NCBI GenBank assembly: GCA_965203175.1
Contig: OZ241867.1
Span: forward strand, 1,696,001-1,760,000
DNA length: 64,000 bases
Reading direction: 5' to 3'
DNA from: Candidatus Latescibacterota bacterium
Lineage (GTDB): Bacteria > Latescibacterota > UBA2968 > UBA8231
Part shown: piece by piece, positions 2,729 through 64,000 of the stretch
Layout: every line of letters begins with the position of its first letter
Numbering within the stretch: position 1 is the first letter of the stretch
Notes under the pieces: generated by a model
What the model was told of the DNA's origin: nothing
What the model saw: only the letters and a program-made list of their open reading frames with translations
The model's database searches: none
Program-made: the position numbers and the translations under genes

Positions 2729-2741
2729 GATGGATTAGAGT

Positions 2742-4052: not shown

Positions 4053-4073
4053 TAGCTGCTTGCGCGGTTCGGC

Positions 4074-5186: not shown

Positions 5187-5190
5187 CCCC

Positions 5191-8977: not shown

Positions 8978-8994
8978 GAACGCCGCAGTTCTAC

Positions 8995-9034
8995 GCAAAA
9001 GGCCGGGTACCTGTTTTGGTACTCGGCCTTTTGC
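8995..9034 (+). terminator. intrinsic terminator (possibly bidirectional)
   Basis: GCAAAAGGCCGGGTACC-loop-GGTACTCGGCCTTTTGC just after the receptor stop codon. Confidence 0.8.
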
Positions 9035-9058
9035 ATCTTAACCTGAAGTGAGTAGCAA

Positions 9059-10696: not shown

Positions 10697-10701
10697 AGTC
10701 G

Positions 10702-12066: not shown

Positions 12067-12106
12067 GGTGCGTCGTCCTGTATAGTTTGCGGGTTGTCGA
12101 TCCCTT

Positions 12107-13780: not shown

Positions 13781-13807
13781 AGCAAACTCCTGATGGAATA
13801 AGTTGGC

Positions 13808-14626: not shown

Positions 14627-14720
14627 GGTGATGCCTCTCCTTCTGTTAAAAATCAATCGCTGAGCCGTAGGGCCGGGGGATCGTCAATGCGGGCAATGTC
14701 GAGGAAAGGGTGAGAGGTAC

Positions 14721-15551: not shown

Positions 15552-15679
15552 GGCTCAAATTAAGTTGCTGGATGCCGACGTGCATGGGAGGCTTCTTCCT
15601 TGGTAGGAGGAAGCAAAACACACATCTTATTCTATTTAATCGAACCCTTTTTTGCAATTTTACGCAGAGGAGATACGAC

Positions 15680-44577: not shown

Positions 44578-45384
44578 TCATTGGCTGAGGCACACCTGTT
44601 GCTGAGTGGCGATTTTCTTTTCATGGGCATAGCGCGCCGTTTCGACCAACTCGAACGTTTCGGGTGCCAGCCGCTCTTTGACCGCCTCCGGAATCGGGCC
44701 GGCTTGGCGGTAGTGTGGCCGGTAGCGCAGCGTCAGCACCCGGCGCTGGCGGTCGGGGGCTCGCCAGGGCAGAACCCCGTGGGTTACGCATTCGGGCATG
44801 ATCACCACGTCCCCGGCCGCAGGCGTGATATTGACGACCTCCAGCGGTACCTCCCCTTCGATGCGACCCTGATTAAATAGCTGCGGCGGCCGGTCGAACT
44901 CACTTTTGTGCGACCCCGGCACCAATAGTAGCCCGCCATCACCGGGATGCACATCGTCCAGGTAGGGAAACACCGCAAAGTCGTCGCAGTAAATACGGCC
45001 CCGGTGCACGTCGTAACGGGCGCTCTCAAAGCCGTAGTCGTCGCGGGCACAGTGCAGTTCTACCGACTCGGTGTGTCCGTCGGGAGAATCGACCATCATA
45101 GTACCGCTGGCGAGCATGGGTTTGCCGTTGGTCAGCTCCAGCACGATGGGCCAGACAGCCGGCAGAAAGACCAGCTTTTCCAGCGCTCGGTCGAAGGCGA
45201 AGCCGTGAGCAAAGCCCTTGAGGTTTTCCGATCGTCCGAAATGCGGCGGCAGATCTTCCGGTGCGCTGTCGATGTAGCGATTAGCGGCATCCGCAGCCGC
45301 ATCCAGTTCCTCCGGGGTCAAGACGTTCTTCAGGTGTAGAAAACCGCATAGATCAAAAAGATAGCGTTGTTCTTCGGTCATCAT
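44578..45384 (-). CDS. PhyH-like Fe(II)/2OG dioxygenase with an atypical HxA motif
   Basis: EQRYLFD..GFL.L..VL, GG...VPGSH, AGDV...E...HG, RR. Confidence 0.85.
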   Translation of the reverse strand: MMTEEQRYLFDLCGFLHLKNVLTPEELDAAADAANRYIDSAPEDLPPHFGRSENLKGFAHGFAFDRALEKLVFLPAVWPIVLELTNGKPMLASGTMMVDSPDGHTESVELHCARDDYGFESARYDVHRGRIYCDDFAVFPYLDDVHPGDGGLLLVPGSHKSEFDRPPQLFNQGRIEGEVPLEVVNITPAAGDVVIMPECVTHGVLPWRAPDRQRRVLTLRYRPHYRQAGPIPEAVKERLAPETFELVETARYAHEKKIATQQQVCLSQ

Positions 45385-45639
45385 CGCCAGCCAGCCTTTC
45401 GTTAGAATAGCGAATTGGGCACCATTAGAATCAAAGAGTTTGCGAGGACAATCGCAACCGAACCCGCGAGGTTGAATCATTCTACGTAACTCCTTGTAAT
45501 AAATTGAGATAGACCGATTTTTCTAAAATCTGACGCGCCTAGCGCCGCAGCGCAAATTTCGCGTCGCCTCAACAATACTTATTATGCTACGTCACAGGGA
45601 GATCCGTTCCTAGGATCCGGACTACGCACAGAATAAAAC

Positions 45640-47076
45640 ATGAGCACCGAAAACGTTGAAACACTACAGTTGCCTTCGTACTTAGGCGGAGAAGCAATCG
45701 ATTCGGCGGATACTTTGGCCGTCCACTATCCCTACGATGGTTCGATTGCTGGTGCGGTTAGCAAGGTCAACGGCGGTCACCTCGACCTAGTGATCGAGCG
45801 CACACTGTCTTTTGACGGACAGCCGTCGCGCTTTGATCGGTCTCAAGTGCTGACCAGAGCTCGCGAACTTCTGCTTGAGCGGGCGGACGAGTTTGCCAAC
45901 CTGATCCGCATGGAGTCCGGACTGTGCATGCGGGAGACCCAGTACGAGGTGGGGCGCGCCTGTGACGTTTTTCAATTCGCCGCGGCAGAGGCATTAAAAG
46001 ACGACGGCGAAATATTCTCCTGCGATGTGTCGCCTAAAGGTGAACAGCGGAAGATTTTTACGGTTCGCGAACCGGTGCGGTTGGCCCTTGCCATTACACC
46101 CTTCAATCACCCACTGAATCAAGTTGCGCATAAGGTTGCACCTGCAATCGCGGCGGGTGTGCCCATGCTCGTCAAGCCATCGGAAAAAACTCCGCTGACC
46201 GCCATTCGGCTTTGCGAGTTACTCTATGATGCCGGCCTGTTCAAGCAGATGCTCAGCGTCTTCGTCGGGGACATCGACACGGTTGTCGAGCCACTAATCG
46301 CGGACGAGCGGGTTGAATTGGTCACGTTCACTGGCGGAACAGCCACTGGGAAACGCATTGCTCAGCTAGCGGGCTACAAGAAATTGTGCTTGGAGCTGGG
46401 TGGTAATAGTCCGTTGATCATTCTGGACGATGCGGACCTCGATCTGGCGGCGACGCTGGCGGCAGAAGGATGTTTTCGCAATTCGGGCCAACGTTGCACG
46501 GCTGTGAAGCGATTACTCGTCCATCGGAAGATTAAGAATGGATTTATGGATAAGTTCCTCGCGCGAGCGGCCACGTATCGGGCCGGTAATCCAGCGGATC
46601 CAGATACCATCGTGGGTACGGTGATTGATGACGCGGCGGCAAAACTGCTTGAGCAACGCGTCCACAAAGCCGTGGATCAGGGTGCGAAAGTGCTACTGGG
46701 AGGAGGACGCAGTGGCGCGCTAATAGAACCAACGATAATCGACGATGTCCCGCGCGACGCGGAAATGATTCGGGAGGAATCGTTCGGTCCGCTGGCCCCC
46801 ATCATCGAGGTCTCCGACATCGACGACGCCATTGCGGTCGCCAACGATTCCAAGTTCGGCCTCTCCTCGGGCGTAGTAACCAATCACCTGCCCAGCGCCC
46901 TGGAATGCGTTCGTCGCATTCGAACGGGGACGGTCAACATCAATCAAGTTCCTGGGTATCGCATTGAATGCTCTCCGTTTGGCGGAGTAAAAGATTCTGG
47001 CTTAGGGGTTAAGGAAGGCGTGATTGAAGCCATGAAGTTCATGACCAACGTAAAGACGTTCTCACTGCCGTGGTAA
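45640..47076 (+). CDS. phnY: aldehyde dehydrogenase, phosphonoacetaldehyde dehydrogenase (PhnY)-like
   Basis: ITPFNHP, LELGGN, NSGQRC, EESFGP. Segments FSCDVSPKGEQRKIFTVREP and PFGGVKDSGLG.KEGV.EAMK.MTNVKTFSLPW resemble PhnY as recalled. Confidence 0.72.
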   Translation: MSTENVETLQLPSYLGGEAIDSADTLAVHYPYDGSIAGAVSKVNGGHLDLVIERTLSFDGQPSRFDRSQVLTRARELLLERADEFANLIRMESGLCMRETQYEVGRACDVFQFAAAEALKDDGEIFSCDVSPKGEQRKIFTVREPVRLALAITPFNHPLNQVAHKVAPAIAAGVPMLVKPSEKTPLTAIRLCELLYDAGLFKQMLSVFVGDIDTVVEPLIADERVELVTFTGGTATGKRIAQLAGYKKLCLELGGNSPLIILDDADLDLAATLAAEGCFRNSGQRCTAVKRLLVHRKIKNGFMDKFLARAATYRAGNPADPDTIVGTVIDDAAAKLLEQRVHKAVDQGAKVLLGGGRSGALIEPTIIDDVPRDAEMIREESFGPLAPIIEVSDIDDAIAVANDSKFGLSSGVVTNHLPSALECVRRIRTGTVNINQVPGYRIECSPFGGVKDSGLGVKEGVIEAMKFMTNVKTFSLPW

Positions 47077-47087
47077 AGGATAATTCA

Positions 47088-47996
47088 ATGAAAAGACTTT
47101 TTATTGTCACCATTATAGCGCTGTCAGGTTTATTCTCTTGTTCAGAAAATGGTGACATACCACTCGATACACCCAATGCAAATACAACAGGTTTATTCAC
47201 ACGGACGCTTTCCCATGATGGTATAACAAGAGAGTACGTTCTATATGTACCTGATTCTTATGATGGAACTTCAGCAGTTCCACTCATGCTCAACTTTCAC
47301 GGATACGGTGGGATTGCAGACCAATACTTAAAATACGCCGATATGCGACCTTTAGCAGATACGGAAAATTTTATTCTAGTCTATCCCCAAGGGACCCTGC
47401 TGGACGGAAATCCACACTGGAATGCTGGTTTAGAATCAGATGAAAATAAAAGTGATGCAGACGACTTCGGCTTTGTAGAAGCATTAATTAGCGAAATCTC
47501 TTCCAATTATAACATTGATTTGGCAAGAGTATATTCCTGCGGTTACTCAAACGGCGCTTTCTTTACGTATGCACTTGCTTGCTACCATAGCGATAAAATA
47601 GCGGCCATAGGGTCTGTTGCTGGAACAATGATGGAGGAAACACATAACAACTGTAGTCCATCACACCCTACGGCTATGATTAACATTCATGGTACAGCAG
47701 ACAAGTCTGTCCCTTATGGCGGGGAGTTTGAAGGATTATCATCAATTGATGAGGTCCTTGCTTATTGGACGAGTTTTAATAATACCAGTACTGATCCGAT
47801 AGTAAACAGTATGGATGATAGTGGAACGACAATAGAGCATTATTCCTATACGGATGGAGACAACAATACTTCTGTAGAACATTATAAAATTATCGACGGA
47901 GGGCATGTCTGGTTCGACATGAACTACGACGGCTCCAATACCAGTCGTTTAATCTGGAATTTTGTATCGAGATATGATATCAATGGACTGAGATAA
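47088..47996 (+). CDS. PHB-depolymerase/LpqC-family esterase lipoprotein
   Basis: Lipobox LFSC, NFHG.G, GYSNG nucleophile, HGTAD, GGH.W; AT-rich. Confidence 0.87.
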   Translation: MKRLFIVTIIALSGLFSCSENGDIPLDTPNANTTGLFTRTLSHDGITREYVLYVPDSYDGTSAVPLMLNFHGYGGIADQYLKYADMRPLADTENFILVYPQGTLLDGNPHWNAGLESDENKSDADDFGFVEALISEISSNYNIDLARVYSCGYSNGAFFTYALACYHSDKIAAIGSVAGTMMEETHNNCSPSHPTAMINIHGTADKSVPYGGEFEGLSSIDEVLAYWTSFNNTSTDPIVNSMDDSGTTIEHYSYTDGDNNTSVEHYKIIDGGHVWFDMNYDGSNTSRLIWNFVSRYDINGLR

Positions 47997-48039
47997 TCTG
48001 TGGTGGCCAGAATGCCCTAATAGAAGACAGGAGATTGCT

Positions 48040-49623
48040 ATGAGTAACGGATGGAATGACCTGCGCGGTTATTATCCTGGAGATTGGGTCAGGCCCAGGC
48101 AGAACGCGGGGCATTGGCGTCCATTGGTCGATTGGACGGAGGTTTTTCCGGGCCATCGCTCCGTCGACCGAGCGGGTGCATTCGAACTCTACGATGCTCC
48201 CATCGGCGTCCGCTTGGCGATCGAGGAGGCAGACAAATCGGCTCCGCTCGAGTTCGATGGCCAAGTGAATGATGACGGCGATGGTGTAGGCAATTCCGTG
48301 CGGGTGTGGCAGGCGGATGACCGATACCACCTGCTCTACTACCAGGGGAGACGCGTCGCTTATGCGGTAAGTGAAGACGCGTACCGCTGGACCCGTCCCG
48401 CCTTGGGCATCATCGAGAAGAACGGCTCGAAGGAGAACAACCTAGTCACCGATGTGGGGGGCGACCTGCTCAAAGCGGTATTCGAGGATCCAACCGCGCC
48501 ACCGGAAGAGCGGTTTAAGGGCATGGGTTGTGAGGGAGCTATGATCAATTCGGAGACCGGAGGGGTCGCCAACGAGGGCGAAGAGGTCGACGAGGAATAC
48601 ATACAAAAGTGGTGGGCCGATCAGGAATACTTGGGTCCAGCCTACAAAGGGCCTAAGCTGATTCTCAAGGGCCGGGTAATGGGATGGGTCTCCCCCGACC
48701 GCATTCACTGGAAGCGGACCGACAAGATTCTCGCCGATTTTCCCATGGATGGGGGCCTCTCCGCCAGATACGATGAGAAATCCGGTTACTACTACGCCTA
48801 CTGTCGCATCCAAGGCGTCCCCCAGGAACAGTTCGACCTGATCGGCAGCGGTGTTCCAGAGGATGGCATTTTCCACCGGGCGATCGGGCTGACCCGGACC
48901 AAGGACTTCAACCACTGGCCCGCTCCCAAGCTCCTCCTCTTTCCAGATGGTCAGGACGAGCCCGACCTCTCGTTCTACGGCGGCGATTACTTTCCCTATC
49001 CGAGTAGAGACGATCTGCACTGCATGTTGGTACAGGCCTACCATCACGCCACCGACCACGTGGACAGCCAGCTCGCCATCAGTCGCGACGGTTTGATTTG
49101 GCAGCGGCCGGAGCGCAAGCCGATTATTTCGGTAGGCGCTCCGGGTGCGCCCGACTCGGCCATGGTCTATTCCTGGGGCAGCGGCATCGCGGAATTGCCG
49201 GACGGCAATTGGGGGTCTCTCTACGGAGGGCACACATCGCTACACAACGCACCGCAGAGAGAAGAGGCGGTGTTGCAGTGGGCTCGGTGGCGGCCCCACA
49301 GATTCTGCGGCATTGAAGCGGATGTGGAGGGCCGGTTTACCTTGCCGACCGTAGTGAGAACCGCCAGTCAGCTGAAGCTCAACTACCGCTGTCGCCCGGG
49401 TGGCTGGATCAAGGTCGAGATTCTGCGCAACATTCCCTCGCGGATTCACCCCGACGTCGATCCGGTCGCCAGCCTGACCTTTGAAGAAAGCGATCTGCTG
49501 CAAGGAGATTCGCTCGACCAGACGGTCACCTGGAACGGCAACAGCGACTTGTCCGAGGTGGGTGAGATGTTGGCGATTCGGATTCGGATGTTTCAGGCAA
49601 AAATCTTCGCGTACCGCGTTTAA
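48040..49623 (+). CDS. hypothetical protein, probable glycoside hydrolase-like beta-propeller with a C-terminal beta-sandwich
   Basis: Asp-box-like S.DG..W repeats (SEDAYRW, SPDRIHW, TKDFNHW, SRDGLIW). Confidence 0.65.
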   Translation: MSNGWNDLRGYYPGDWVRPRQNAGHWRPLVDWTEVFPGHRSVDRAGAFELYDAPIGVRLAIEEADKSAPLEFDGQVNDDGDGVGNSVRVWQADDRYHLLYYQGRRVAYAVSEDAYRWTRPALGIIEKNGSKENNLVTDVGGDLLKAVFEDPTAPPEERFKGMGCEGAMINSETGGVANEGEEVDEEYIQKWWADQEYLGPAYKGPKLILKGRVMGWVSPDRIHWKRTDKILADFPMDGGLSARYDEKSGYYYAYCRIQGVPQEQFDLIGSGVPEDGIFHRAIGLTRTKDFNHWPAPKLLLFPDGQDEPDLSFYGGDYFPYPSRDDLHCMLVQAYHHATDHVDSQLAISRDGLIWQRPERKPIISVGAPGAPDSAMVYSWGSGIAELPDGNWGSLYGGHTSLHNAPQREEAVLQWARWRPHRFCGIEADVEGRFTLPTVVRTASQLKLNYRCRPGGWIKVEILRNIPSRIHPDVDPVASLTFEESDLLQGDSLDQTVTWNGNSDLSEVGEMLAIRIRMFQAKIFAYRV

Positions 49624-49635
49624 GAGGTTGATCGC

Positions 49636-51573
49636 GTGACAGGTAATCAGACGGGCGCGGTCCCTAAGTTGGTCGAAGTCAGGGCGACGCAGGTATCGCC
49701 GCCCCCCGGATGGGCGCTTCTGGAACGCCGGTTGATGAAGCTGATGGAGGACGCGGTCGAGCCCATGGTCGACAAGTACGCGGAAAAGGGCGGCGCATTC
49801 TACTACGCCGACGATGTTGACGACCTATACGAAAGGGTGTATAACTGGGGCCTGTTCTACGCCATGGGGGCCGATCGCAAGGTGCTCGACCTCGGGTTGC
49901 AGCAATGGCACGCAACCACTCGGTTCTTCGCCGACGATATTACCAGCCGCGTCCACCCCCGCTTCCAGCCCCAGATCCACAACGAGTACTACAACCAAGC
50001 CGCCGCCGGTGCCAACGAGTGGTACCACCAGGGCGAGGGCAACATGGCCTTCTACCATTTCGGCCTAGCCGATCCCACCATTTCGGAAAACGTGCGCCGC
50101 GCTAGGCGGTTTGCGGCCATGTTCATGGACGAGGATCCCGAAGCCCCCAACTACGATCCCCAGCACAGGATCTTCCGCAGCCCCATTCAGACCAGCGTCG
50201 GCCCCATGCACCACGCAACGGTGGACAACGTAATCATGTGGCTGCAGGGAGGAGAAACGGGTTACGAGAAGGGATACCGCCCCTACAGGGTGCGGGCCAC
50301 CCTCGATCCGGTAGTGACAGACCTCGAGGGGAACTGGTTCGAGGATCCCGCGCGCCGGGACGAGATTCTCAAGCTGTTCGACCACATCGTCCTTAACGGC
50401 GACGTCCCCCACAGTCTCGGCGCCACCGCCCTGATCACCAACGCCTTCCTCTACACCGGCGAGGACAAGTACAAGCAGTGGGTGCTCGACTACACCGAGG
50501 GCTGGATGGAGCGCATCGAGCGCAACGGCGGCATCCTGCCCGACAACGTCGGGCCGACCGGCGAGATCGGCGAAAACCGCAACGGCCTCTGGTGGGGCGG
50601 GCTCTACGGCTGGAACACCTTCGTCGGCCACTACATCATGTTCAGCGCCCTCACCATCGCCGCCGAATGCGCCCTCCTGCTCACCGGCGACTTCGGCTAT
50701 CTCGAACTGCTGCGCTCGCAGATCCGGCTGCTCATGGACAACGCCATCACCCGCGAGGACGGCCAGCTTCTGTTGCCGGCCCGCTACGGTGCGGACGGCT
50801 GGGAGTACGCGAGGGACGACTACGACTACGAAAAAGGCCGGTTCGTGCCCTACCGCATGCAGGAGTTGGCCCACCTCTATCACGCCTCAATGTCCCAAGA
50901 GGACTACGACCTCATCGTCCGCATTCGGGACACCGACAAAATGCGCGACTGGAACCACGCGCCCGTCCTCGGAGAGAAGAGCTACGCCGACACCGAGCTG
51001 GCCCGCTTCCAGTACTACGACGGCAAGAACCCGGACTGGCCCGAAAAAATCCTGCAGGCCGAGTATGAGAATGCCCAGGCTGATTTCCAGTCGATACTAA
51101 ACGAAACCCGGGACGCCAAGACCCTGATCGCCGACAACCCCTCTCCCCCCACTACGGTCTACACCAAGGGATTGACGCAGGTGACGATGGGGGCGCCGCA
51201 ATCGGTGTACACTGGAGGGCTATTGCGCGCCACCGTCCGCTACTTCGATGCAGACCGCACGCGACCGGGCCTACCACCCGATGTCGCCGCTCTCGTCGAC
51301 AAACTAGGAACTGACAGCGCAGGTCTTCAGCTCGTCAACCTAAACGCCAGCGAGACGCGCAACCTGATCGTGCAGGCCGGGGCTTTCGCCGAGCACGAAT
51401 TTGTCGAACTGGCGCATGAAGAGCAGACCATCCAAGTGGAGTCGAAGTACTTCGCAGTGCAACTCCCCCCCGGCACCTCCATCCGGCTGGACGTGGGCAT
51501 GCGCCGCTTTGCTCACCAGCCGACCTATGCCTTCCCTTGGCACGGGGATGCTATCCCGGTGCCGTACCAGTAG
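49636..51573 (+). CDS. conserved hypothetical protein (probable alpha/alpha toroid)
   Basis: Long ORF with strong GC3 bias, RBS GAGG, 12 bp after the previous gene; no function recognised. Confidence 0.75.
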   Translation: MTGNQTGAVPKLVEVRATQVSPPPGWALLERRLMKLMEDAVEPMVDKYAEKGGAFYYADDVDDLYERVYNWGLFYAMGADRKVLDLGLQQWHATTRFFADDITSRVHPRFQPQIHNEYYNQAAAGANEWYHQGEGNMAFYHFGLADPTISENVRRARRFAAMFMDEDPEAPNYDPQHRIFRSPIQTSVGPMHHATVDNVIMWLQGGETGYEKGYRPYRVRATLDPVVTDLEGNWFEDPARRDEILKLFDHIVLNGDVPHSLGATALITNAFLYTGEDKYKQWVLDYTEGWMERIERNGGILPDNVGPTGEIGENRNGLWWGGLYGWNTFVGHYIMFSALTIAAECALLLTGDFGYLELLRSQIRLLMDNAITREDGQLLLPARYGADGWEYARDDYDYEKGRFVPYRMQELAHLYHASMSQEDYDLIVRIRDTDKMRDWNHAPVLGEKSYADTELARFQYYDGKNPDWPEKILQAEYENAQADFQSILNETRDAKTLIADNPSPPTTVYTKGLTQVTMGAPQSVYTGGLLRATVRYFDADRTRPGLPPDVAALVDKLGTDSAGLQLVNLNASETRNLIVQAGAFAEHEFVELAHEEQTIQVESKYFAVQLPPGTSIRLDVGMRRFAHQPTYAFPWHGDAIPVPYQ

Positions 51574-51600
51574 CTCTCCACATAGCGTCAACCATCAACA

Positions 51601-52371
51601 TCAGGGCATCCAGATATTCCACTTGCCATACTTTTCCCAGATGCGACAGGCGTCACAGGTACACATCAACCGGAGTGCAAAACGCGGTTTGTTACTTGTA
51701 TTGAGAGATCCAGAGTGTATCAACAGATAATGAAAAAACAGTACATCTCCTCGGGAAGGCCTCAACTCAATCGGCTCTCCCAGACCGAACCTTTGTTGCG
51801 GCTTCTTAAAATCTGACAGCATTTGATACCGGTCAGAGTTCTGCACTGCCGCCTTGCTGAGCTTCCGATGCGATCCTGGCCAGACCGCAGTACCACCACC
51901 CTGCGCAACACCAGAATCGAGATAGGTCAGGGAAGAGACGCGGAATGACCCGGGAAAGACATTGAAAGGTCGATGTCCACCATCGACGTGCCCATTGCTA
52001 TAATCCCAGTCTTTCGAAACCGGAAATACACTGCGTGCCCAGACTCCCTCTGGTTGTGGCTTCTGACAGTGAAATGCACCTGCATTTTCCCGAGCCAGTT
52101 GGCTCTGTACTTCGTAAAATGCGGGAGTACAACAAGCCAACAACGCGGGATCTTGAACCCCAAAATGTTCAATCACCCCCTGGCTGACGATTGTGTTTAC
52201 CCCATCTGTTTCGTCTGGCAAAGGAGACCACGAAGCCGGATCATCCCGATCTACCCCGAGCACAGACCACATCGCAACTTCCGCATTGGCAATTGTCTCT
52301 TCTGGAATCAATCCCGACACCAGCACATACCCATCTCGGTCATATTGCGTCAGTTGCTCCTGTGAAAGCAT
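51601..52371 (-). CDS. PhyH-family Fe(II)/2OG dioxygenase
   Basis: HVD, PGSH, GDV..FH...HSG, R. Confidence 0.88.
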   Translation of the reverse strand: MLSQEQLTQYDRDGYVLVSGLIPEETIANAEVAMWSVLGVDRDDPASWSPLPDETDGVNTIVSQGVIEHFGVQDPALLACCTPAFYEVQSQLARENAGAFHCQKPQPEGVWARSVFPVSKDWDYSNGHVDGGHRPFNVFPGSFRVSSLTYLDSGVAQGGGTAVWPGSHRKLSKAAVQNSDRYQMLSDFKKPQQRFGLGEPIELRPSRGDVLFFHYLLIHSGSLNTSNKPRFALRLMCTCDACRIWEKYGKWNIWMP

Positions 52372-52395
52372 AGACTCCTCCTAGATAGATCGAAT

Positions 52396-52438
52396 TATGT
52401 ATAGAAAAAATAAGGCATCGATATCGGTACTATGCAGT
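52396..52438 (-). mobile_element. orphan IS91/ISCR oriIS-like end, copy A
   Basis: - strand ...GTACCGATATCGATGCCTTATTTTTTCTATACAT; nearly identical to 55389-55431. Confidence 0.65.
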
Positions 52439-52461
52439 CTTCAGCCCCCAGCCCCCACTTC

Positions 52462-53199
52462 TCAATGCTTACACGCCACATGTCGATCTTCGTAGATTCC
52501 CTTTGGAAACTTTTCTGGATTGAGTTCTTCAGGCATATAATGCCATGCCGTGCTATAGCGCGTGCGATTGCTGTGGTTATCATAAGCACCGTGCAGGAGA
52601 TTGGCGGAAAACAGGACAACCGTGCCAGCGGGAATGACCACATCCACAGCCTGCGATTCATCGACCTTTGTCCAACTGCCATGCCTGCTTGGATCCCTGC
52701 GGTGCTCGACAATCTCGCCCATCCGGTGGCTGCCGGGCACCACCCGCAAACACCCATTCTCCACATCTGAATCTTCCAGATAAATTCCACAACTGATAAT
52801 GCGATCCGTATCGGTGCCAAAATAAAAGTTGTCCTGATGCCAGCCCGTTGACGTGCCGCCATTGGGCAACTTGGGAAAAAACTTAGTGCCAAACACATCG
52901 ATATTTTCACCAATCAATACGGCCACGCGGTCTAAAATCGCCGGTTCACGCGCCAGTTCCAACACGCGGGCATCGACCACGCAAACCCCCTGCACTTTGT
53001 GCAACAAACCCGCCTGGGGTTCGCCGCGCTCGTCCAACTCAAGCGTCCAGTGCGGCACCTGCTCGGTCAACTTGCATCCTTCTGCGACCAGTTCATCAAA
53101 CACCTGCTTGTAATAGGCCAATCGCTCGCCTTGTATCAGGGCTGCAAAAACGAGATAGCCCTGTTCTCGGAACTGTCGCACCTGTTCGTCTGTCAACAT
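52462..53199 (-). CDS. PhyH-family Fe(II)/2OG dioxygenase
   Basis: WHQD, NGCL.VVPGSH, LLHG...N....R. Confidence 0.92.
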   Translation of the reverse strand: MLTDEQVRQFREQGYLVFAALIQGERLAYYKQVFDELVAEGCKLTEQVPHWTLELDERGEPQAGLLHKVQGVCVVDARVLELAREPAILDRVAVLIGENIDVFGTKFFPKLPNGGTSTGWHQDNFYFGTDTDRIISCGIYLEDSDVENGCLRVVPGSHRMGEIVEHRRDPSRHGSWTKVDESQAVDVVIPAGTVVLFSANLLHGAYDNHSNRTRYSTAWHYMPEELNPEKFPKGIYEDRHVACKH

Positions 53200-53299
53200 A
53201 AAAACCTCCTCGACTTCGCGGCCTGAACCAACTCTCGCTCTAGCAATTTGTAATAGGCTGCAGAATCAGTCGTCGCCTTTTTCTTTAACAGAGCCTGCG

Positions 53300-53333
53300 A
53301 TGTATAAGAAAAATAAAGACACCGGCTCGGTGC
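53300..53333 (-). mobile_element. orphan oriIS-like end, copy D (diverged)
   Basis: - strand GGCACCGAGCCGGTGTCTTTATTTTTCTTATACAT: same terminal motif and a subterminal hairpin at the same offset. Confidence 0.5.
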
Positions 53334-53408
53334 CACCACCTCTTACCGGTGACCCGCTTGGCTACTGGCGGTTGGGGAGCGGCGCGCCTCAGGACGCCGC
53401 TCCGAATT

Positions 53409-55160
53409 CTACCTAGCCAGCGAGGGTGGTGACACGCCTTTCCCCCCTTTCAACACCAGGAAATTCCTGGCCTCATCCACAGCGGGCTTCCCGGCGGGGT
53501 CCACCTTCATGGGCCCTCCGTTCCCGCCGTTGGCATCCTTGTCCCAGATTCTGTCATCATACCCATCGGGAGCATACTGACAGATGTAGGCTTTGCGCAC
53601 GCTATCGGTGTTGTTGGCCCCTGTAAAGTGCGGCGTCAGGCTCCAGAAGATCGCCGCCGAGCCCGCCTTGACCGGCACACAGACGGCATCGTCGGATCTA
53701 AGGCCGCTGATCGTCCAGCCACCGTTGCTCTCATCGAACTCGTGAAGCAGCGGCCCTCGCCGGAAGAGCCTCGGCACGAACCACGGGCAGCCGTTTTCCT
53801 CGGTTGCATCGTTGAGCGCTACCCAGCACGACAGGTATTGCAGGGGGTCAATGAACGCAAGGCCAATGTCCTGATGGCAGGGGAAAACCCGCCCAGGGCA
53901 GGGCTTCGTGTACACCGCCTGCTCCCGGTACAACCGCACATCGTCGCAGTTGAGCAGGTCGTGGCAAACCTTCTGGAAGAACGGGCCGGCGCAGAATGAG
54001 CGGGCAAGCGCCGACCCCCGGGCCAGGCCGCTCGTAATGGTGATCCGATCAGCATTCGCAATCGTGCGCGACGGCTGCTGCCGCCCCCTGGCTTCGAGGT
54101 GCCGCACACTCTCGTGCTCGAGCCGATCGAATTCATCCCGCAGCTGCCCGATCTCCGCAGCGCTGAAGGCATCCTCGACCACAGTGAACCCCTGGAGATC
54201 CATATCGTCCGCCTGATCCCTGGTGAGGATCCGGAGAGGAGCATCCTTGCGTGTCGGCAGGAGCGACGGGTGCTTGCTCGCGCTGCTGAACTCCATGGCC
54301 GGATGCCGCGGCAGTCGCGCGTTGTGCTGAGCAGCCGGCGTCGGCTCGTCGCCCGTGGACCAGCGTGCGGTTCCGTCGAAGCCGAGGCGCTCCCACAACA
54401 CGTGCGGCCACTCCCTGAAGCCGCTTGAGATGTAGTGGCATGCGTAGACCTGGCGAAAGACGGTCGGGTCGCGCCCCATCAACCCCCGGTGCCACAAATG
54501 GCCGTCGAAGATCACGGCTGTTCCCCTTTTTGCCACGATGTGCACCTCCTCCGCCCCTGCCGCTTCGTTCTCCTCGAAAATCTCCTTCCTCAGCCTAGCA
54601 CCTAGCTCCGGGTCGCCTGAGTGCGTGCGATAGCCCGCCCACTTTCCCTGCCGGAGGTCATCGTGGTGAAGCTTGCGGCGAAGGTGGCCGCCTGTCTGCA
54701 GCGCGAGCGTGCCGATCTCCTCGTCCACGTCCACGAGCGGAATCCACACACCGATGCAGCCCGGAAGCGGGGTTCCGTCACAATGCCAGCTCTGCGACCA
54801 CTGGCTGCCCTTCCACCAGTAGTGGCTCTTGATGCCCTCGGGCTCTTCCCCGCCCAAGGCATCCTTGAGCGGTCCGCGCAGCTTCGGATGCAGCATGAAA
54901 GCGCGGCAGACGGGGTCGTGGATGTGGCACTGATCCGTGTCGATGAGATGGTCGGCGCTTTCCGCCGGCGGGACGATTCCCTCGACGGGGATTTCGCCCG
55001 CGTGCACGGCGTCCATATGCCGGATGAGCCCGTCGCACTCGTCGGCGGTGAAGAGCGAAGGCACGGCGACCCACCCGTCGCGAGCGTACTTCCGCCTCTG
55101 CTCGGTGGTGAGGCCCGCCACCTCCACGTGGCTGGGTTGGGTGTGTTCGGAGCCGGACAT
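53409..55160 (-). CDS. tandem two-domain PhyH-family dioxygenase
   Basis: Domain 1 WHCD...WHRG; domain 2 HQD...NGC...PH. Start placed at ATG 55160 because the upstream in-frame stretch overlaps a PQQ-enzyme remnant. Confidence 0.82.
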   Translation of the reverse strand: MSGSEHTQPSHVEVAGLTTEQRRKYARDGWVAVPSLFTADECDGLIRHMDAVHAGEIPVEGIVPPAESADHLIDTDQCHIHDPVCRAFMLHPKLRGPLKDALGGEEPEGIKSHYWWKGSQWSQSWHCDGTPLPGCIGVWIPLVDVDEEIGTLALQTGGHLRRKLHHDDLRQGKWAGYRTHSGDPELGARLRKEIFEENEAAGAEEVHIVAKRGTAVIFDGHLWHRGLMGRDPTVFRQVYACHYISSGFREWPHVLWERLGFDGTARWSTGDEPTPAAQHNARLPRHPAMEFSSASKHPSLLPTRKDAPLRILTRDQADDMDLQGFTVVEDAFSAAEIGQLRDEFDRLEHESVRHLEARGRQQPSRTIANADRITITSGLARGSALARSFCAGPFFQKVCHDLLNCDDVRLYREQAVYTKPCPGRVFPCHQDIGLAFIDPLQYLSCWVALNDATEENGCPWFVPRLFRRGPLLHEFDESNGGWTISGLRSDDAVCVPVKAGSAAIFWSLTPHFTGANNTDSVRKAYICQYAPDGYDDRIWDKDANGGNGGPMKVDPAGKPAVDEARNFLVLKGGKGVSPPSLAR

Positions 55161-55174
55161 TTCAGTGGGAATCG

Positions 55175-55332
55175 CTACTTCGGTCGCGCGAAGGCGACGA
55201 GCGCGGCGTCCGATCCGGTGCCCGTAGCGATGACGACGAACTGCCGCCCCGACCGCGCGCGGTAGGTCATGGTTCTTGGGCACCCGCGAGGGCGGTAGAT
55301 AAGAGGGCGGCTGTCGCAACTAATCGCTTCAT
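55175..55332 (-). pseudogene. internally deleted PQQ-dependent dehydrogenase-like gene
   Basis: Signal peptide MKRLVATAALLSTALAGAQE is joined out of frame to MTYRARSGRQFVVIATGTGSDAALVAFARPK*, matching the PMTY..GRQ[YF]VVI...LVAF.LP C-terminus of quinoprotein dehydrogenases. Confidence 0.72.
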
Positions 55333-55388: not shown

Positions 55389-55580
55389 TATGTATAGAAA
55401 AAATAAAGGCATCGATATGGTTCTATGCAATTCGCTGAAAACGCTACAATTCACCGAGAACGTTCGCAAGAGTCCGGCAGAGTCCCTGATGACTCGCCTG
55501 TCGTCGCATCGAATTGTTCGGGAATTACACACCGGTGTAAATATGATGCGGCTATTCCCTCGGTCAACCAAGAATGTTGA
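55389..55580 (-). mobile_element. orphan IS91/ISCR 3'-end (oriIS-like), copy B, about 190 bp
   Basis: Aligns with 58072-58244 (TTCGCTGAAAACGC, CCCTGATGA, TGTCGTCGCA.CGAAT.GTTCG, TGTAAA-N20-GGTCAACC) and with copy A at the terminus. Confidence 0.72.
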
Positions 55581-58071: not shown

Positions 58072-58772
58072 AGATAGGAAAAGTAAGGTGCCGATATCAG
58101 TACTAATCAGTTCGCTGAAAACGCACGCAAGGGGCCAGCAGGGCCCCTGATGAATCGATTGTCGTCGCACCGAATCGTTCGCGAATACTCAGAGTACTGT
58201 TGTAAAGAATTTCGGCGCGGTTCAGGGGTCAACCTAGTACTTGAGGGCACACTCCTCCGTACGGCTCACGGCGCAGGGAGCGAATCGCGGAGGAGGTCAG
58301 GCGACGAACTCGAACTGCGGCTGCGGGGGTGTCTTGGGTGGGCACCGCCGGCCGGCCTCCCCCCTCCAAATACCCTGGATCGAGGTAGGATCGGTCAGGG
58401 CGGCCACGATCCGCAGGGGCCGGGTAGCCGTTGAGCTCGGCGGCAAACACCCAGGCGATGGCCGCAGGGCGGAGCGCTTGAATCGCGGTCCACCGCCGTC
58501 GACTCTTCGACCGGCTTGGCGGGCACGATGCGGCCGCGATCCCGGGCACGGAGGGGCCAGGACCCTGTGGTAGCGCAGGAGATGAAACCGGGGCGGGGGA
58601 CCAGAGTTGCCAGCTTCTCCAGTAGGTCCATCGGAGAGAGTAGAAGATAGCTCGTGCCATTCGACCAAGGCGTTTTGAGCGCGAAGGAAAGCCGCTGCGA
58701 ATCGAGGATGCGCAGACGCCTCGCCGCCAGGGCCGGCCGGGCCACGTAGCGGAATAAGCGTTCGAGCCCCGC
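58072..58772 (-). mobile_element. IS91/ISCR-like rolling-circle element remnant: frameshifted transposase C-terminus (about 58297-58772) plus 3' region ending in oriIS-like copy C
   Basis: LERLFRYVARPALA..RL...LSFALKTPWSNGTS.LLLSPMDLLEKLA.LVP/PPRFHLLRYH.VLAP.../LRIVAALTDP is typical of IS91/ISCR Y2 transposases. About 220 bp past the stop the - strand reads CCTTACTTTTCCTATC. Confidence 0.82.
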
Positions 58773-58957
58773 TCGTGGCCATCGTCAAGGAACGACTCCA
58801 TCTCGATCTATCTTTGCATGCGATGCTACAAATTCTCAGCGTCACGCCTTTCGAAACAGTACCGCTGATTCAACTATTTACCGTACCCCGCCGCCTCAGG
58901 AAATCCCTGATGCCCATAACCAACTGTTTTTGCTATGAAACGTGTCGGACACTACTG
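58772..58957 (+). mobile_element. IS4-family transposase C-terminal fragment with right terminus
   Basis: LVAIVKERLHLDLSLHAMLQILSVTPFE..P..QLF and terminal GTCGGACACTACTG. Confidence 0.72.
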
Positions 58958-59136
58958 ACAACACATGAAGATTGTCGAGTTCGACGCTAGACTCGCATGG
59001 GGTGCGGCCTAACTACCGTAGCATCACTTCTGGGATGGCACAGTAACCCACCGGCCCGAACGACTTCGCACGCCCTACGAAATCATCGTCGGGGATCGGT
59101 GATATGTATACGGTGGCCCTAGTGCGTTGTAGCAAA

Positions 59137-62100
59137 CTATCCCACCAGCTCAAAAGTTTCATATCTCACTCTTTCGCCTTCAAACTCCTTCACTTGCCTA
59201 GACATATAACGCCCTACCGTCTTTTCTATTCTTGATACTTCCTCTCCGCCCAGAACCGAGATTTCCGAATCCTTGTTCCCAAGAGAATTGTAACTCGTTC
59301 CCAAACGAAGCCCCACTCCTTTTGACAAGATCCAGCGATCGTGAAAGGGCGCAACACCATTCCTTTCAGTGCCTACAACCAGGATTTCTGTTTCCGGAGG
59401 GGCATGCTCGCAAAGTTTTCGCCAAGCGGTGGTGTATGCACTAGGCAGGTCGCTGTTAGTGTTGGGTCCGAGTTGGTGTGCCTTGCTTGTGACAATTTGT
59501 ACGTGAAGATCCGGGTCTGCCTCTATTACTTGAACCACAAAATCCAAGTCATTTACCCCAAAGTAAGGATCGACAATGGTGATACTGTCCACGGCGTTTT
59601 TGTCGAGCCAATCCTGGAGGTATTGTTTCGCCTTGTCCCGTTCACCAAACTGAATGATGACTATATTGTCTGCGTCGCCTCGGTCCTGCCACTCGGGATT
59701 CGAACCCAATCGGCCATGTCTTTCGGTTATGGAAAAGAAAAACTCCGCGCCCCGCAACACACCTTCAAATAGATCTCTAATATATGTCTTCGATTCACTA
59801 GTATAAGAATATTTTATGAGCGCATTAGACAGTATCCACGAATAGATCGGGTACGATGTTTTCAACGGATAGTTGCTAGCGCACACGAGCATTTCACGCA
59901 GCCGAACCATGTCAGTGGCTATCATGCGACCAGAATTGAGTGCACCGAGAGCTCGCCACGCTGCCAATGCTAGGCCCGGGTCGTCTTGCAGCGTTTCCAA
60001 ATCAAGATGACTACGCGAGTCTCCCAGGTCCTTTCTTAACTTATGTCCATCTAATTGTAACCTCGCGCGTTCCCTGTATTCGTCGCGCGCGGGATCGTCG
60101 TCATATAGCATAGCCAACTTCATTGGTAGTTCGGGATCGAGGCGGTAAGCTAGGTCTATGATCTGGTTTTCTCTAAAGGCAGTTCGCCGGGAACCTGTAT
60201 TGATTATTAGACCGAACGCCTTTTTCAAAGCGCGCGAAGCAAGCTCTCGGTCCCAAGCAATCGTTAGATCGGTGATAAGAAAGAGATGACTGTAGCGGTC
60301 TTCGATAGTCGGTAAACTGTCGGTTGTTAAGTCCACATCTTTCAACAATCGCTTGGCGTGGCGGTGCTGTTTCGATGGGAGGCTAACGGCCAGTTCGGCC
60401 AGTACAAAAATTCGATCGGCCATATTACTGATTGACTCGCCCTCCGCTATGAGTTTGGCCCACGTTACGTCGGGAGATGCTGAAATTCGCAACGCCTCTG
60501 CTTTGCAGAGAATTTGGTATCCCGCATGTTGTATCCGGTTTGGGAGAGGCAATCGCCGTTCGGCAATTTCGAGCATCCGCCGGGTAATGTCTGCTTTCTG
60601 GTCCCGAGTCAGATGAATCGATGTTCGAGGTGCTGTGACGGCTGACGCGATGCTGTGGAAAATCCTATAAATTGTAAAGTCTTCGTCGGTTTCGTCACAC
60701 AATTGTAGTAAATTCTGAATATCAGAAAAGGTGAGACGTGAGGCGGTTGAATTTGTGTCGTCAAAGGGTTCTCCAGGCGGTTGTTTTCGTAACAGGGCGA
60801 AGCTGAGGGCTGACGTGCAATCCGCTTGCACGGATGCGGGGAATGCGGAAATCCCACTTCGGGCCCGATCTCTGTCGTCAAGCCACACCGCGGGATAGGC
60901 ATACCGCCATGCCTGATATGCGGTCGCGCAATCCTTCCCGGAGAGATTAGCAAGTGCCGGCCACACGTGTTCGTTCACTACGTCGGAGAATGCGCGAGAT
61001 TCTCCTGCGCGCCAGAGATAAAACGCTAGGCTGGACAATAAAGTGACCCGCTCTTGTAAATCTGGTACTCTAACAGCCATGCGGCAAACCCTGTCTATGT
61101 CGGTGGCCACAAGGAGTTTAGATTCCGCTAGTGCGTAGGCTGCTTTCATCAAGAGATCCACGACGTAAATGATACCCTGTTCGACATCCTCGCTTCCAGA
61201 AACCAATCTGCTTTCTGTGGCCAAAGAGTCAAACACGGTTTTTGCCAAGTCGGGGCGTTTCTGTCGTAGTGTGGGCACCAGTTGACAGGCTGTTCGGTAT
61301 TTGGCTCGAGGGCTGGCGATGGAATCAAACGCGGCTAGGAGGCTGTCATCCACAGAGGTACGAAAAACGTCGTTATCCTGTGAACTACCAAGTGTAACCG
61401 CGATTTCGGCAAGACACTTCGTTTTGATTACTGCGGAAGAACATGCCGCTAAACGAGGGAAAACGCAGTTTAGATCGATCGACGGGCGAGTGCCGGCGTC
61501 TACATCAAGACAGAAGCGCTTTACGGTGTCCCAGATCGCGGCGTCGAACTGCTCGCAGGGGCCCATTTCATTGAGTGCGGCAAACAATACGGCGCTATTG
61601 AGAGTAATTGTGGTGGCCTTGCACATTGAAGCCACTATTTCGCGAAATGCGCTAGTTCGACGGTCTATGGTGTTAAGGCGACGAGAAACGTCGAGCGCGG
61701 CTTCCGGTTTAGAACTTGCTAGTGCCGTAATGGTATCCTTAAGTATCTCGAACTGTTCCGCACTAGCTGCGAGTATTTCGGTAAGTGTTTGGGCGAACTC
61801 AGTGTCCACCATAGCGCCGACGTCGGACAATTGGTCCAACTTTCGCGAAGGGTCGAACTTGTGTAGCTCGGCGATGAACCATGCGAGGCAAGTGATTCTA
61901 GTCTCCAATTCGTCAAGGGAGTCAATTGGGTCTAAATATAGTTCTTCGAGACGGTCTACTGTTCGGGCGAGATCGCCATCTGCGTAATTGCATCCCGCCA
62001 AGCGGAGCTGTAGTCGGACATAATCGACGATTGGGCCCTTGTTTCGTATAACCTCCTTTTGCCCGTCAAGCATGGCGACGATGCGCCGACATCTGTCTCG

Positions 62101-63993
62101 ATCGACTGCGTACGGAAGGGGTGCAGAAAGTTCGCGATAGACCGCGGCGGTCGGGGTGAATTGCGGGGTAGCGATGGCGTCGTGGATGCCTACTTCAACC
62201 ACATCGAGTGCATCACTTCGTAACGGATGTCGCGCAACCCACTTTCTCAGGATGAACAACCTTTCACTAGAATCGCTAATGGAGTGGGTTACGTCTAGGA
62301 CGTCGGCGGCTGACTTCGGATGGAAGAAAATCTCGCTGGCGTCCAACAGGCGGCGAAGTTTCTCGTCGACCATGAGGTCTTTCGGAACGGGCGGTAAGGG
62401 ACTTTCGCTACCGCGTGTCTCGTGGGTGTTTTTGGTCCTGAGTGCAGCTACGGTGACTCTCGCCAAGGCAAGTTCAAATGAACCATCGTCCACTTGGGAA
62501 TGCGTGACCGTTTTTAGAAGGTTCAACGCGAGCTCGGCGTCGATCGGATAGAGATCGGTGGCGATATCTATCCCTTCTTCTGTGGGCAAAGACCCAAGAT
62601 CGAGACTTTGGTAGATCTGTCGGATCTCTTCCAATATTGGTGTCGCGTCAAAACCGGGGCTGTTGGAAAGTGCGTCAACGGTAACTGCTAATAGGCGCAT
62701 ACGTTGTGTGAGTAGCGGTACATCGTTGGCGACCGCGAGAGCTCCGTCGACATCGCCGACTGCGCTGCGCGCTCGGATCTCGTGCTCTATACCGGTTGTC
62801 TGTGAAGCCTGTTGAATTATTGACCTAGATAGTGAGTAGGTGGTGAGTGCGCGGTCTCGTCGCGCTTGGTGGCATATATTTATGGCGCTGCGCAGCGTTG
62901 GTTCTATTCCGGCTGCAGTTCGTGTCTTGAGTAGTATGGTGGCCAGTCGGCGCTCATGTAGCCAATCCACTAGTGCGTCCGTTTTTCCCGCACGTTCTAA
63001 ATACGTTGGGAGTTGAGTCAGTGATTCGGGTGAATCTGGCTTCTGGAGTAACATTTCGGCGATGGCTTCGGTGGCCTCGGATACGAGTGCTCCGAGGTTC
63101 CGGTCGGCAAAACTTCGGAAAGCGTCCGACGAAAACTCCCAACCCTTCGCCTTCTCTGAGTAGAGAAGAAATGGTAGCGAACTAAACGCGTTGTCGATAT
63201 TCGTTTTGGTTGTTCCACAATGAGCCGCGAGAGTCTGTGAATCTACAGGAGAGCCGTAAGCCACAATAAATCCCAAGGCTCGATGGATCTCCATAGGTGA
63301 CTGGGAGATGACAGTCCATTCGGTTTCGAAGAGAGACTCAATGTCTGTGGGGAATTCATTCAGAATCTCAGAGACGTCTTCTGGATTGGAAGCAAGGCGA
63401 CGCCTCACACTTGCGAGGATGGCCGGTACCCCGCCAAATACCGGGTGAATTTCAGCTCGCAACTTGTCATCTGTTACTAAGTCCTTAAAATACTCGTTGG
63501 TCTCATGCGGGCTAAACGGCGGTAACGGATATGATTTCGCTCGTAGCGTTCGCTTGGTAGCGCCGCTAAGTACGTCGCTCATTTCCCCACTGAATAGGAA
63601 CCTGAATGGTTTGATTCCGAGTGGTAGAAGGTTCAATAATGCTTGGCGGATTGAGTCGTCGGCAGATGGAATATGGTGAAAACCGTCAACAATGATGTAC
63701 CCCGGGTTACGGGCACGGTCCAGTACACGGGCACATTTACCCCACAAATTACGAAGATCTCCGTCGGTTGGGTCGCGGTTGTCGGGTAGCCGCCTGTCGG
63801 TTAAGTACCAGTGAACTTGGTCTGCCAAGTCATGGCGCGCAAAAACTGGGTCGTAGGCTAATCTGCTAGGCGCTTTGAGGAATAGTCCAAAACACGGTTC
63901 GTCGACACTATCGGCAAACTCTAACAAAAGAGTGGTCGTTCCCCAATTCGATGGTGCTTCGACGCATACAACGTCGGTATTCGAGACAAACAT
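59137..63993 (-). CDS. very large (at least 1618 aa) STAND/NLR-like NTPase with helical repeats and a C-terminal PLD-like domain; candidate anti-phage protein (N-terminus may extend past the window)
   Basis: Walker A-like VEAPSNWGTTTLL, Walker B IIVDG, GVPAIL, long helical solenoid, C-terminal IVDPYF...FHDRWILSK..GLRLGTSYNSLG. Confidence 0.72.
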   Translation of the reverse strand: MFVSNTDVVCVEAPSNWGTTTLLLEFADSVDEPCFGLFLKAPSRLAYDPVFARHDLADQVHWYLTDRRLPDNRDPTDGDLRNLWGKCARVLDRARNPGYIIVDGFHHIPSADDSIRQALLNLLPLGIKPFRFLFSGEMSDVLSGATKRTLRAKSYPLPPFSPHETNEYFKDLVTDDKLRAEIHPVFGGVPAILASVRRRLASNPEDVSEILNEFPTDIESLFETEWTVISQSPMEIHRALGFIVAYGSPVDSQTLAAHCGTTKTNIDNAFSSLPFLLYSEKAKGWEFSSDAFRSFADRNLGALVSEATEAIAEMLLQKPDSPESLTQLPTYLERAGKTDALVDWLHERRLATILLKTRTAAGIEPTLRSAINICHQARRDRALTTYSLSRSIIQQASQTTGIEHEIRARSAVGDVDGALAVANDVPLLTQRMRLLAVTVDALSNSPGFDATPILEEIRQIYQSLDLGSLPTEEGIDIATDLYPIDAELALNLLKTVTHSQVDDGSFELALARVTVAALRTKNTHETRGSESPLPPVPKDLMVDEKLRRLLDASEIFFHPKSAADVLDVTHSISDSSERLFILRKWVARHPLRSDALDVVEVGIHDAIATPQFTPTAAVYRELSAPLPYAVDRDRCRRIVAMLDGQKEVIRNKGPIVDYVRLQLRLAGCNYADGDLARTVDRLEELYLDPIDSLDELETRITCLAWFIAELHKFDPSRKLDQLSDVGAMVDTEFAQTLTEILAASAEQFEILKDTITALASSKPEAALDVSRRLNTIDRRTSAFREIVASMCKATTITLNSAVLFAALNEMGPCEQFDAAIWDTVKRFCLDVDAGTRPSIDLNCVFPRLAACSSAVIKTKCLAEIAVTLGSSQDNDVFRTSVDDSLLAAFDSIASPRAKYRTACQLVPTLRQKRPDLAKTVFDSLATESRLVSGSEDVEQGIIYVVDLLMKAAYALAESKLLVATDIDRVCRMAVRVPDLQERVTLLSSLAFYLWRAGESRAFSDVVNEHVWPALANLSGKDCATAYQAWRYAYPAVWLDDRDRARSGISAFPASVQADCTSALSFALLRKQPPGEPFDDTNSTASRLTFSDIQNLLQLCDETDEDFTIYRIFHSIASAVTAPRTSIHLTRDQKADITRRMLEIAERRLPLPNRIQHAGYQILCKAEALRISASPDVTWAKLIAEGESISNMADRIFVLAELAVSLPSKQHRHAKRLLKDVDLTTDSLPTIEDRYSHLFLITDLTIAWDRELASRALKKAFGLIINTGSRRTAFRENQIIDLAYRLDPELPMKLAMLYDDDPARDEYRERARLQLDGHKLRKDLGDSRSHLDLETLQDDPGLALAAWRALGALNSGRMIATDMVRLREMLVCASNYPLKTSYPIYSWILSNALIKYSYTSESKTYIRDLFEGVLRGAEFFFSITERHGRLGSNPEWQDRGDADNIVIIQFGERDKAKQYLQDWLDKNAVDSITIVDPYFGVNDLDFVVQVIEADPDLHVQIVTSKAHQLGPNTNSDLPSAYTTAWRKLCEHAPPETEILVVGTERNGVAPFHDRWILSKGVGLRLGTSYNSLGNKDSEISVLGGEEVSRIEKTVGRYMSRQVKEFEGERVRYETFELVG

Positions 63994-64000
63994 GTGGGCT

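Follow-up and report, generated by a model that had tools for sequence, protein, structure and literature searches.

Several described systems resemble parts of the gene treated here, which lies on the minus strand at the end of a 64,000-nucleotide stretch of a Candidatus Latescibacterota genome (the window; contig OZ241867.1, G000:C1:1696001-1760000 in our numbering) and encodes a protein of 1652 residues. The Avs proteins, such as Avs3 (PDB 8dgc), are large single polypeptides in which a STAND (signal transduction ATPase with numerous domains) NTPase is joined to a long helical region of the sensor type and to a nuclease-type output; they are found in defence islands. In MalT (PDB 8bob) the NTPase comes first, a helical sensor follows, and the output domain, a LuxR-type DNA-binding domain, comes last. 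Enzymes of the phospholipase D (PLD) superfamily carry the catalytic motif HxK(x)4D(x)6GSxN, and in single-domain PLD nucleases such as Nuc and BfiI two chains pair to form the active site. The bNACHT proteins are bacterial defence proteins related to the nucleotide-binding leucine-rich-repeat (NLR) proteins, and the supplementary discussion of a preprint on them places some effectors at the extreme C-terminus, after repeats (10.1101/2022.07.19.500537); the words "PLD" and "phospholipase" are absent from its text. A 2026 preprint renamed the VPA1262 family Juno and reported that two VPA1262 proteins give >100-fold protection against four coliphages; its main text names neither a PLD domain nor a mechanism for Juno (10.64898/2026.08.01.741415).

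The Latescibacterota protein combines elements of these systems: a predicted STAND NTPase module at the N-terminus, a long helix-rich middle region that is presumed to be the sensor, and a C-terminal domain with a predicted PLD fold (Table 1). From the predicted folds, the conserved residues, a module shared with Juno, and the genomic context of its relatives we conclude, with moderate confidence, that the gene encodes a one-gene NLR-like (STAND) receptor from a large family that has no name, and that its role is most likely immunity against phages or mobile elements.

The gene is a single open frame with its terminus at window position 59137 and its other end past the window edge. In the extension beyond the window end (L002) the frame starts with an ATG at L002:8096, ~96 nucleotides (nt) past the window, which adds 34 codons to the 1618 that the first-pass annotation had read. 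The added N-terminal residues match conserved positions in the relatives, including S12, T14, P16, and R25, when these are aligned from residue 1, so the upstream ATG is the real start; the open frame described earlier is a genuine gene of 1652 residues, and its length had been read too short. Its guanine-plus-cytosine (GC) content, 0.517 compared to 0.572 for the window, is lower, as had been remarked. A scan for sigma-70-like promoters was uninformative, with six found where 5.1 were expected, and no RNA data set listed covers the 5' region of the gene.

An AlphaFold2 (AF2) model of residues 1-600, built from a 36-row alignment (predicted local distance difference test score, pLDDT, 80), had 153 Foldseek matches at E<=1e-3, the best being Avs3 (E 2.6e-8) and others being Apaf-1, a STAND-TPR protein, MalT, CED-4, NOD2, and NRC3. 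The VIA comparison gave Apaf-1 (Z 21.8, 413 aligned), the STAND-TPR protein 6mfv (Z 21.3), and MalT (Z 20.7, 383/412 aligned) as its top rows, with plant and animal NLRs including NRC2, NLRP3, NLRC4, and NOD2 further down and Avs3 (Z 13.5) below Apaf-1 and MalT. As the top rows are tied, no single STAND clade is singled out. Structure prediction, which had been proposed as the check on a STAND/NACHT-like N-terminus, bears that proposal out: the model predicts a STAND/NLR-type module of nucleotide-binding domain (NBD), helical domain (HD), and winged-helix domain (WHD). Sequence profiles were less informative. Pfam returned for the whole protein only sub-threshold matches to AAA_16 (E 0.0025), AAA_22, and Spectrin, and a profile search of PDB sequences gave nothing below E 0.09, with a match to NAIP5 over the Walker A alone at E 0.27; precomputed Pfam matches on the relatives are to AAA_16, AAA_22, NACHT, and NPHP3_N. 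The Walker B motif, read earlier as IIVDG, lies in the nearly invariant YIIVDG, and the acidic pair after it is His-His in this protein and in ~40% of the relatives. The conserved G-V-P in the helical domain is presumably the STAND GxP motif.

The model of residues 1440-1652 (pLDDT 82.4) has 64 Foldseek matches in the PDB at E<=1e-3, including TrmBL2, FAM83A, NucT, PLD, Nuc, BfiI, Zucchini, and SauUSI. When it was compared by VIA with 48161 representative chains, the top 28 rows all belonged to the PLD superfamily (Z 13.5 to 6.4, model residues 34-212), among them FAM83A (13.5), NucT (12.8), FAM83B (12.5), Nuc (12.5), Zucchini (11.7), SauUSI (11.1), and BfiI (9.6), and the rows that followed were unrelated methyltransferases with Z ~5. 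The last ~180 residues are therefore modelled as a PLD-superfamily domain, which is what the first-pass annotation had suggested from the motifs DPYF, HDRW, and G.S.N.LG, all of which were located within this fold. A single PLD-like domain per protein was found among the 150 matches listed in a search with the C-terminal profile, so by analogy with Nuc and BfiI a canonical two-histidine site would need two chains. Scans of the protein with Pfam, NCBIfam, and PADLOC gave no other candidate effector domain.

The ~1100 residues between these two domains had been described as helical repeats. The AF2 model shows stacked helices at residues ~330-600, and the composition of the middle region favours helices, so the helical character stands for the modelled part; repeats in the sequence were not found, as an hhalign profile-profile comparison of six blocks covering residues 340-1440 gave a best probability of 5.8%.

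By analogy the protein would work most like the Avs and bacterial NACHT receptors, yet it belongs neither to Avs, nor to Juno, nor to the canonical PLD enzymes. It shares with Avs the large polypeptide, the STAND NTPase, the long helical region, the presumed nuclease-type output, and the defence islands, but nothing precedes its NTPase, which begins near residue 25 of the 1652, the only globular domain found apart from the NTPase is C-terminal, and its presumed output is an HxR domain of PLD fold. With neither a match among the PADLOC models nor an N-terminal effector, it is not an Avs member. Compared to the bNACHT proteins, some relatives carry NACHT or NPHP3_N Pfam matches whereas this protein has only the weak, below cut-off match to AAA_16. 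The first-pass annotation had called a C-terminal effector inverted and unusual; an effector-like domain is indeed C-terminal here, but MalT is arranged in this way too, and the order has a precedent in print among the bNACHT proteins, in the supplementary discussion noted above (10.1101/2022.07.19.500537). The single-domain nucleases Nuc, NucT, BfiI, and Zucchini have the same predicted fold and likewise a single HxK-type motif per chain, but here the motif is HxR, the Asp is replaced by Ser or Lys, and the GSxN loop has one extra residue.

A module is also shared with Juno. The NCBIfam model VPA1262_N_dom (NF040700) matches residues 1485-1608 (E 1.2e-10, 40.7 bits compared to an 80-bit cut-off) over its positions 322-452 of 478, and a partial match of this kind was likewise found in three other family members. 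True VPA1262_N proteins, encoded in two sister genomes, reach 205-208 bits on NF040700 and cover its positions 3-475. NF040699 (Juno/VPA1262 family) scored only 21.9 bits against a cut-off of 325 bits, over residues 1491-1593. An hhalign comparison of the C-terminal profile with a bona fide VPA1262_N protein of a sister genome gave a probability of 96.3% (E 1.6e-9). These profile matches show that the C-terminal domain is homologous to part of the VPA1262 (Juno) N-terminal domain. Both are single-gene systems with a variant PLD-like module bearing the signature DPYF...HDR(W/F)...G(T/N)S (profile positions ~320-460 of 478), but Juno is without a STAND module and has the common domain in its N-terminal half, whereas here it is at the C-terminal end. 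The protein is not a Juno member and has one module in common with Juno. The VPA1262_N proteins of the sister genomes are 550 residues long (L010 707-2994 in G001 and L009 1399-3060 in G006). In G001 two open reading frames (ORFs) come after the VPA1262_N gene; the nearer one overlaps it, has 212 residues, and bears a second PLD-like signature, HDRF...G-S-T. This arrangement of three ORFs looks like a split, multi-gene Juno relative.

The family is large and unnamed. A word-seeded search returned 68 relatives, nearly all full-length ones being 1646-1663 residues long and 40-75% identical, with two at 26%. When a profile was made from the last 213 residues, a hidden Markov model search gave 1660 representatives at E<=1e-3, of which 625 reached E<=1e-30; each of the 150 matches listed has the domain at the extreme C-terminus, and the full-length proteins have 1606-1690 residues. 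Searching the ESM Atlas with the whole protein gave unnamed clusters of ~1640-1677 residues with NPHP3_N on 11% of members, and seven clusters that were looked up had no name in any source. None of the 5027 models of PADLOC-DB v2 (2023) matched the protein at E<=1, and none matched five relatives at E<=1e-5; this was the proposed check for an already described system, and no such system emerged from it. Full-text literature searches found no description of a STAND protein with a C-terminal PLD-like domain of this kind, although supplementary files may list such architectures.

Part of the case for immunity comes from the neighbourhoods of the relatives. Seventeen independent loci with at least ~2 kb of flank were compared, with L020/L021 and L044/L045 each taken as one and L015, L018, L022, L023, and L024 excluded because they had too little flank. 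At ten of the 17 the gene has known defence genes nearby or is carried by a prophage (a raw count without a background rate), where the first-pass annotation had asked whether homologues are enriched in defence islands. Eight have PADLOC-recognised defence genes within ~7 kb: a cyclase and two-transmembrane (2TM) effector of a cyclic-oligonucleotide-based anti-phage signalling system (CBASS) at L004; an adjacent type IIG restriction-modification gene at L005; methyltransferases, PbeA fragments, and a PglX-like gene at L012; BrxP, a type IV restriction enzyme, GajA, and GajB at L013; SoFic at L014; an adjacent Mrr-type nuclease at L016; a DdmD-like gene at L019; and HNH, BrxA, and BrxB at L020/L021. 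At two more loci the gene is embedded among the tail or baseplate genes of a tailed prophage. At L046 (7715-12604) the family member is between the baseplate-hub and baseplate-wedge genes, and at L044 (2926-7827) it is between the spanin/tail-fibre block and an O-acetyltransferase moron; both positions are typical of prophage accessory cargo. At L004 (18111-23683), past a transposase near the relative, the CBASS cyclase with its SLATT 2TM effector is accompanied by a separate NACHT-type protein of 1249 residues. Partner genes, which had been thought possible, were not found: in an all-against-all BLAST no neighbour within 4 kb was common across 19 loci, the sole cross-locus match being a Na/H exchanger pair. 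The gene travels alone.

The gene was most likely acquired horizontally in this genome, as only 1 of the 24 other species of the genus that were searched has a full-length homologue, and that at a different locus, as the GC content differs from that of the window, and as the segment is absent from two sister species. The genes around it here are metabolic (PhyH dioxygenases, a flavin adenine dinucleotide (FAD) oxidoreductase, and katG). In G010 and G022, the two sister species, the FAD gene adjoins katG with one ~155-nt element between them, and the 6.5 kb of L002 2230-8726, which contain the fragment of an IS91 transposase, this gene, and 630 nt upstream of the gene, are missing; in this genome the segment is flanked by two copies of the element that are 80% identical. 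A third sister species, G001, has a different cargo of 14.7 kb at the same site (L043 ~1430-16140), so the site is a variable hotspot.

The following mechanism would fit the domains. The helical region would recognise an invader-derived trigger, the NTPase module would then oligomerise, and oligomerisation would join two or more of the C-terminal PLD-like domains. By analogy with Nuc and BfiI the paired domains could make up a composite site with two histidines, at which phosphodiester bonds, probably those of DNA, would be cut, and cleavage would either kill the infected cell or destroy the invader. More tentatively, and on balance doubtfully, the family could be a widespread one-gene NLR-like immune clade with the MalT order of NTPase, sensor, and effector, an HxR-type PLD nuclease output that works by induced pairing, a module reused by Juno, and a dispensable P-loop Lys; the last of these is suggested by the fact that this Lys has been lost in four or more different ways, in one case throughout an intact subclade. 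If this is true, reuse of the HxR-type module would give Juno a mechanism, and the dispensable Lys would parallel the P-loop-independent plant NLRs. An immune role would add to the bacterial NLR-like repertoire a large, unnamed clade (625 representative clusters at E<=1e-30) that is currently undetectable with PADLOC models, and the variants with and without the Lys would form a natural series in which to ask if a canonical P-loop is essential to STAND receptors. Linking the mechanism-less Juno to a PLD-type module also provides a His/Arg active-site hypothesis for both systems. In this genome the gene shows where, between two conserved genes, a recombination hotspot lies, and the cargo there differs among sister species.

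A number of observations weigh against the immune reading, and they concern the context, the copy in this genome, and the C-terminal domain. Seven of the 17 loci (this window, L003, L006, L011, L017, L025, and L026) are without clear defence context, and the apparent defence enrichment of the family is a matter of raw counts. Residues 600-1440 are outside both models and could hold another functional domain.

In this copy the Walker A loop departs from the consensus GxxxxGK[ST], which the family as a whole satisfies, as it reads G-T-T. The first-pass annotation had pointed out this GTT for GKT, and the Lys column of 110 full-length relatives agrees with it: 99 have Lys, five Ala, two Arg, one Ile, and this protein alone Thr, and the other two have a gap. 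The Lys is thus absent from 9 of the 108 ungapped sequences, and an additional relative at L014 has Leu at this position. The Thr53 codon, ACG, is one base from AAG, and since contigs of two separate studies match the window exactly across it, it is not an assembly slip of one data set. In a sister strain (second study, run X3) the contigs break at L002 7971/7980 (window 63970-63979), where their loose ends carry an inverted repeat of 21 nt and 10 nt are common to both. A mobile element has probably inserted here, at about codon 40, and duplicated its target site, which would explain a gene call of 1596 residues in the 6.09-Mb genome; the 20-nt terminal motif of the presumed element is absent from this genome. 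Split copies at five other loci (L006, L018, L020, L021, and L022) show that decay is common in the family.

It is accordingly a possibility, though one we think less likely, that the family is an immune receptor and this copy an inactive relic, with nucleotide binding disabled by the Lys-to-Thr change and the gene heading for loss. The closest relative, at 75% identity, retains GKT, an IS91 fragment adjoins the gene, and the second-study contigs that carry the Thr codon also carry the break. All 1652 codons are nevertheless open, and all other conserved residues that were checked in the NTPase and the PLD-like domain are retained. Among the differences listed for the first 166 codons in near-identical contigs of two other organisms, 6 are synonymous and 5 non-synonymous in one and 7 and 2 in the other, so that non-synonymous changes, in small numbers, are below neutral expectation. 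In contigs of more distant strains (organisms C and D) the differences listed include none at codon 53. Eight other full-length relatives also do without the Lys, and the five with Ala are intact proteins of 1631-1638 residues that form one clade with a shared GDGAT. This copy is either weakened or independent of canonical nucleotide binding, and the intact clade without Lys suggests that the latter can work.

The nuclease activity of the HxR-type domain is a property that we infer. The canonical motif is not present, as the sequence is H-D-R-W-I-L-S-K-...-G-T-S-x-N: it retains the His and the Gly/Ser/Asn loop but has Arg for the Lys, Ser or Lys for the Asp, and one residue more in the loop. 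The Pfam PLDc models gave no match at E<=1, and hhalign compared the C-terminal profile with a canonical PLDc_2 domain from L013 at a probability of only 2%. Among the best structural matches are PLD folds that are not catalytic, namely the FAM83 DUF1669, the TrmB sugar-binding domain, and MITD1. All of this would suit a non-enzymatic module that binds nucleic acid, nucleotide, phospholipid, or protein as a sensor or anchor, with the output provided by something else, such as the middle region or the oligomerisation of the protein. We regard that explanation as unlikely. The His, Asp, Arg, and Trp of HDRW and the Gly and Ser of GTSxN are invariant in members that are only 22-27% identical overall, which is an active-site pattern; Arg is a conservative substitute for the phosphate-binding Lys; the catalytic NucT and Nuc score level with the pseudo-enzymes FAM83A/B in VIA; and no alternative effector domain came from the three database scans.

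A MalT-like housekeeping signal-transduction ATPase that regulates the nearby metabolic genes would fit the NTPase-first order, the VIA score of MalT, a weak NCBIfam MalT match in one relative (E 6.5e-5), and the metabolic neighbours in this genome, but it is highly improbable since the protein is about twice as long as MalT and has a mobile, defence-type context, neither Pfam nor NCBIfam scans found a helix-turn-helix family or other DNA-binding domain of the LuxR type in a protein that ends in a PLD fold, sister species have the metabolic genes but lack this one, relatives often lie in defence islands or prophages, and the neighbours differ at each locus examined, the lack of a conserved neighbour arguing against such a regulator. 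The stand-alone immune receptor is the reading that we retain.

Table 1. Features of the gene and its surroundings, in window coordinates.
Feature	Position	Strand	Basis or remark
Coding sequence of the 1652-residue protein	59137..64000 (part inside window)	-	Open frame; relatives align from residue 1
STAND NTPase module (NBD, HD, WHD), residues ~20-340	63076..64000, first ~30 residues beyond window	-	Predicted; AF2 model, Foldseek, VIA
Walker A loop APSNWGTT; Thr53 (ACG, 63937-63939) in place of family Lys	63934..63957	-	Identical in contigs of two studies
Walker B YIIVDG (D137, G138)	63682..63699	-	D in 109/110, G in 110/110 relatives
G-V-P, residues 222-224, helical domain	63424..63432	-	P224 in 110/110, G222 in 100/110 relatives
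Long helix-rich middle region, residues ~341-1472, presumed sensor	59680..63075	-	Modelled helices to residue 600; helix-favouring composition
C-terminal PLD-superfamily domain, residues 1473-1652	59140..59679	-	Predicted; AF2 model, Foldseek, VIA, NCBIfam VPA1262_N_dom
DPYF	59560..59571	-	Inside PLD-fold domain
HDRW, at PLD HxK motif position	59332..59343	-	H-D-R in 110/110 full-length relatives
GTSYNSLG, at PLD GSxN loop position	59278..59301	-	G1599, S1601, S1604, G1606 invariant in 23 sequences
IS91/ISCR-type (Y2) transposase fragment, downstream of gene, inside inserted segment	58395..58784	-	Pfam PF04986 E 3.8e-11; NCBIfam ISCR clade Ia E 2.9e-14
Left copy of ~155-nt repeated intergenic element	58074..58228	+	Right copy outside window, L002:8727-8891

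Of the IS4/IS91 debris that had been reported next to the gene, the IS91 part is borne out by the transposase fragment, while the ORF at 58679-58990 has no Pfam or NCBIfam match and the IS4 part is not confirmed. Further copies of the ~155-nt element lie at window positions 52397-52438 and 55390-55525, and every copy has the same orientation. On the minus strand the element has a conserved palindrome followed by a T-run, which is terminator-like, and the copies are just upstream of minus-strand genes; the sister genomes have one at the empty site or several around other cargo. The element could be a leader/attenuator, a small RNA, or a recombination site. A search of L002 1900-9100, including two element copies, with Rfam gave only two chance-level matches (E 0.71 and 0.79). 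The cargo of L043 includes a PhyH gene, a split pyrroloquinoline quinone (PQQ) dehydrogenase, and a gene pair encoding Metal_CEHH and Prok-E2_C/ThiF (E2/E1-like) proteins. In this genome five PhyH-type 2-oxoglutarate dioxygenase genes lie within ~25 kb (window 44578-55319 and L002 11420-12193), and one of them is a 636-residue fusion with two PhyH stretches.

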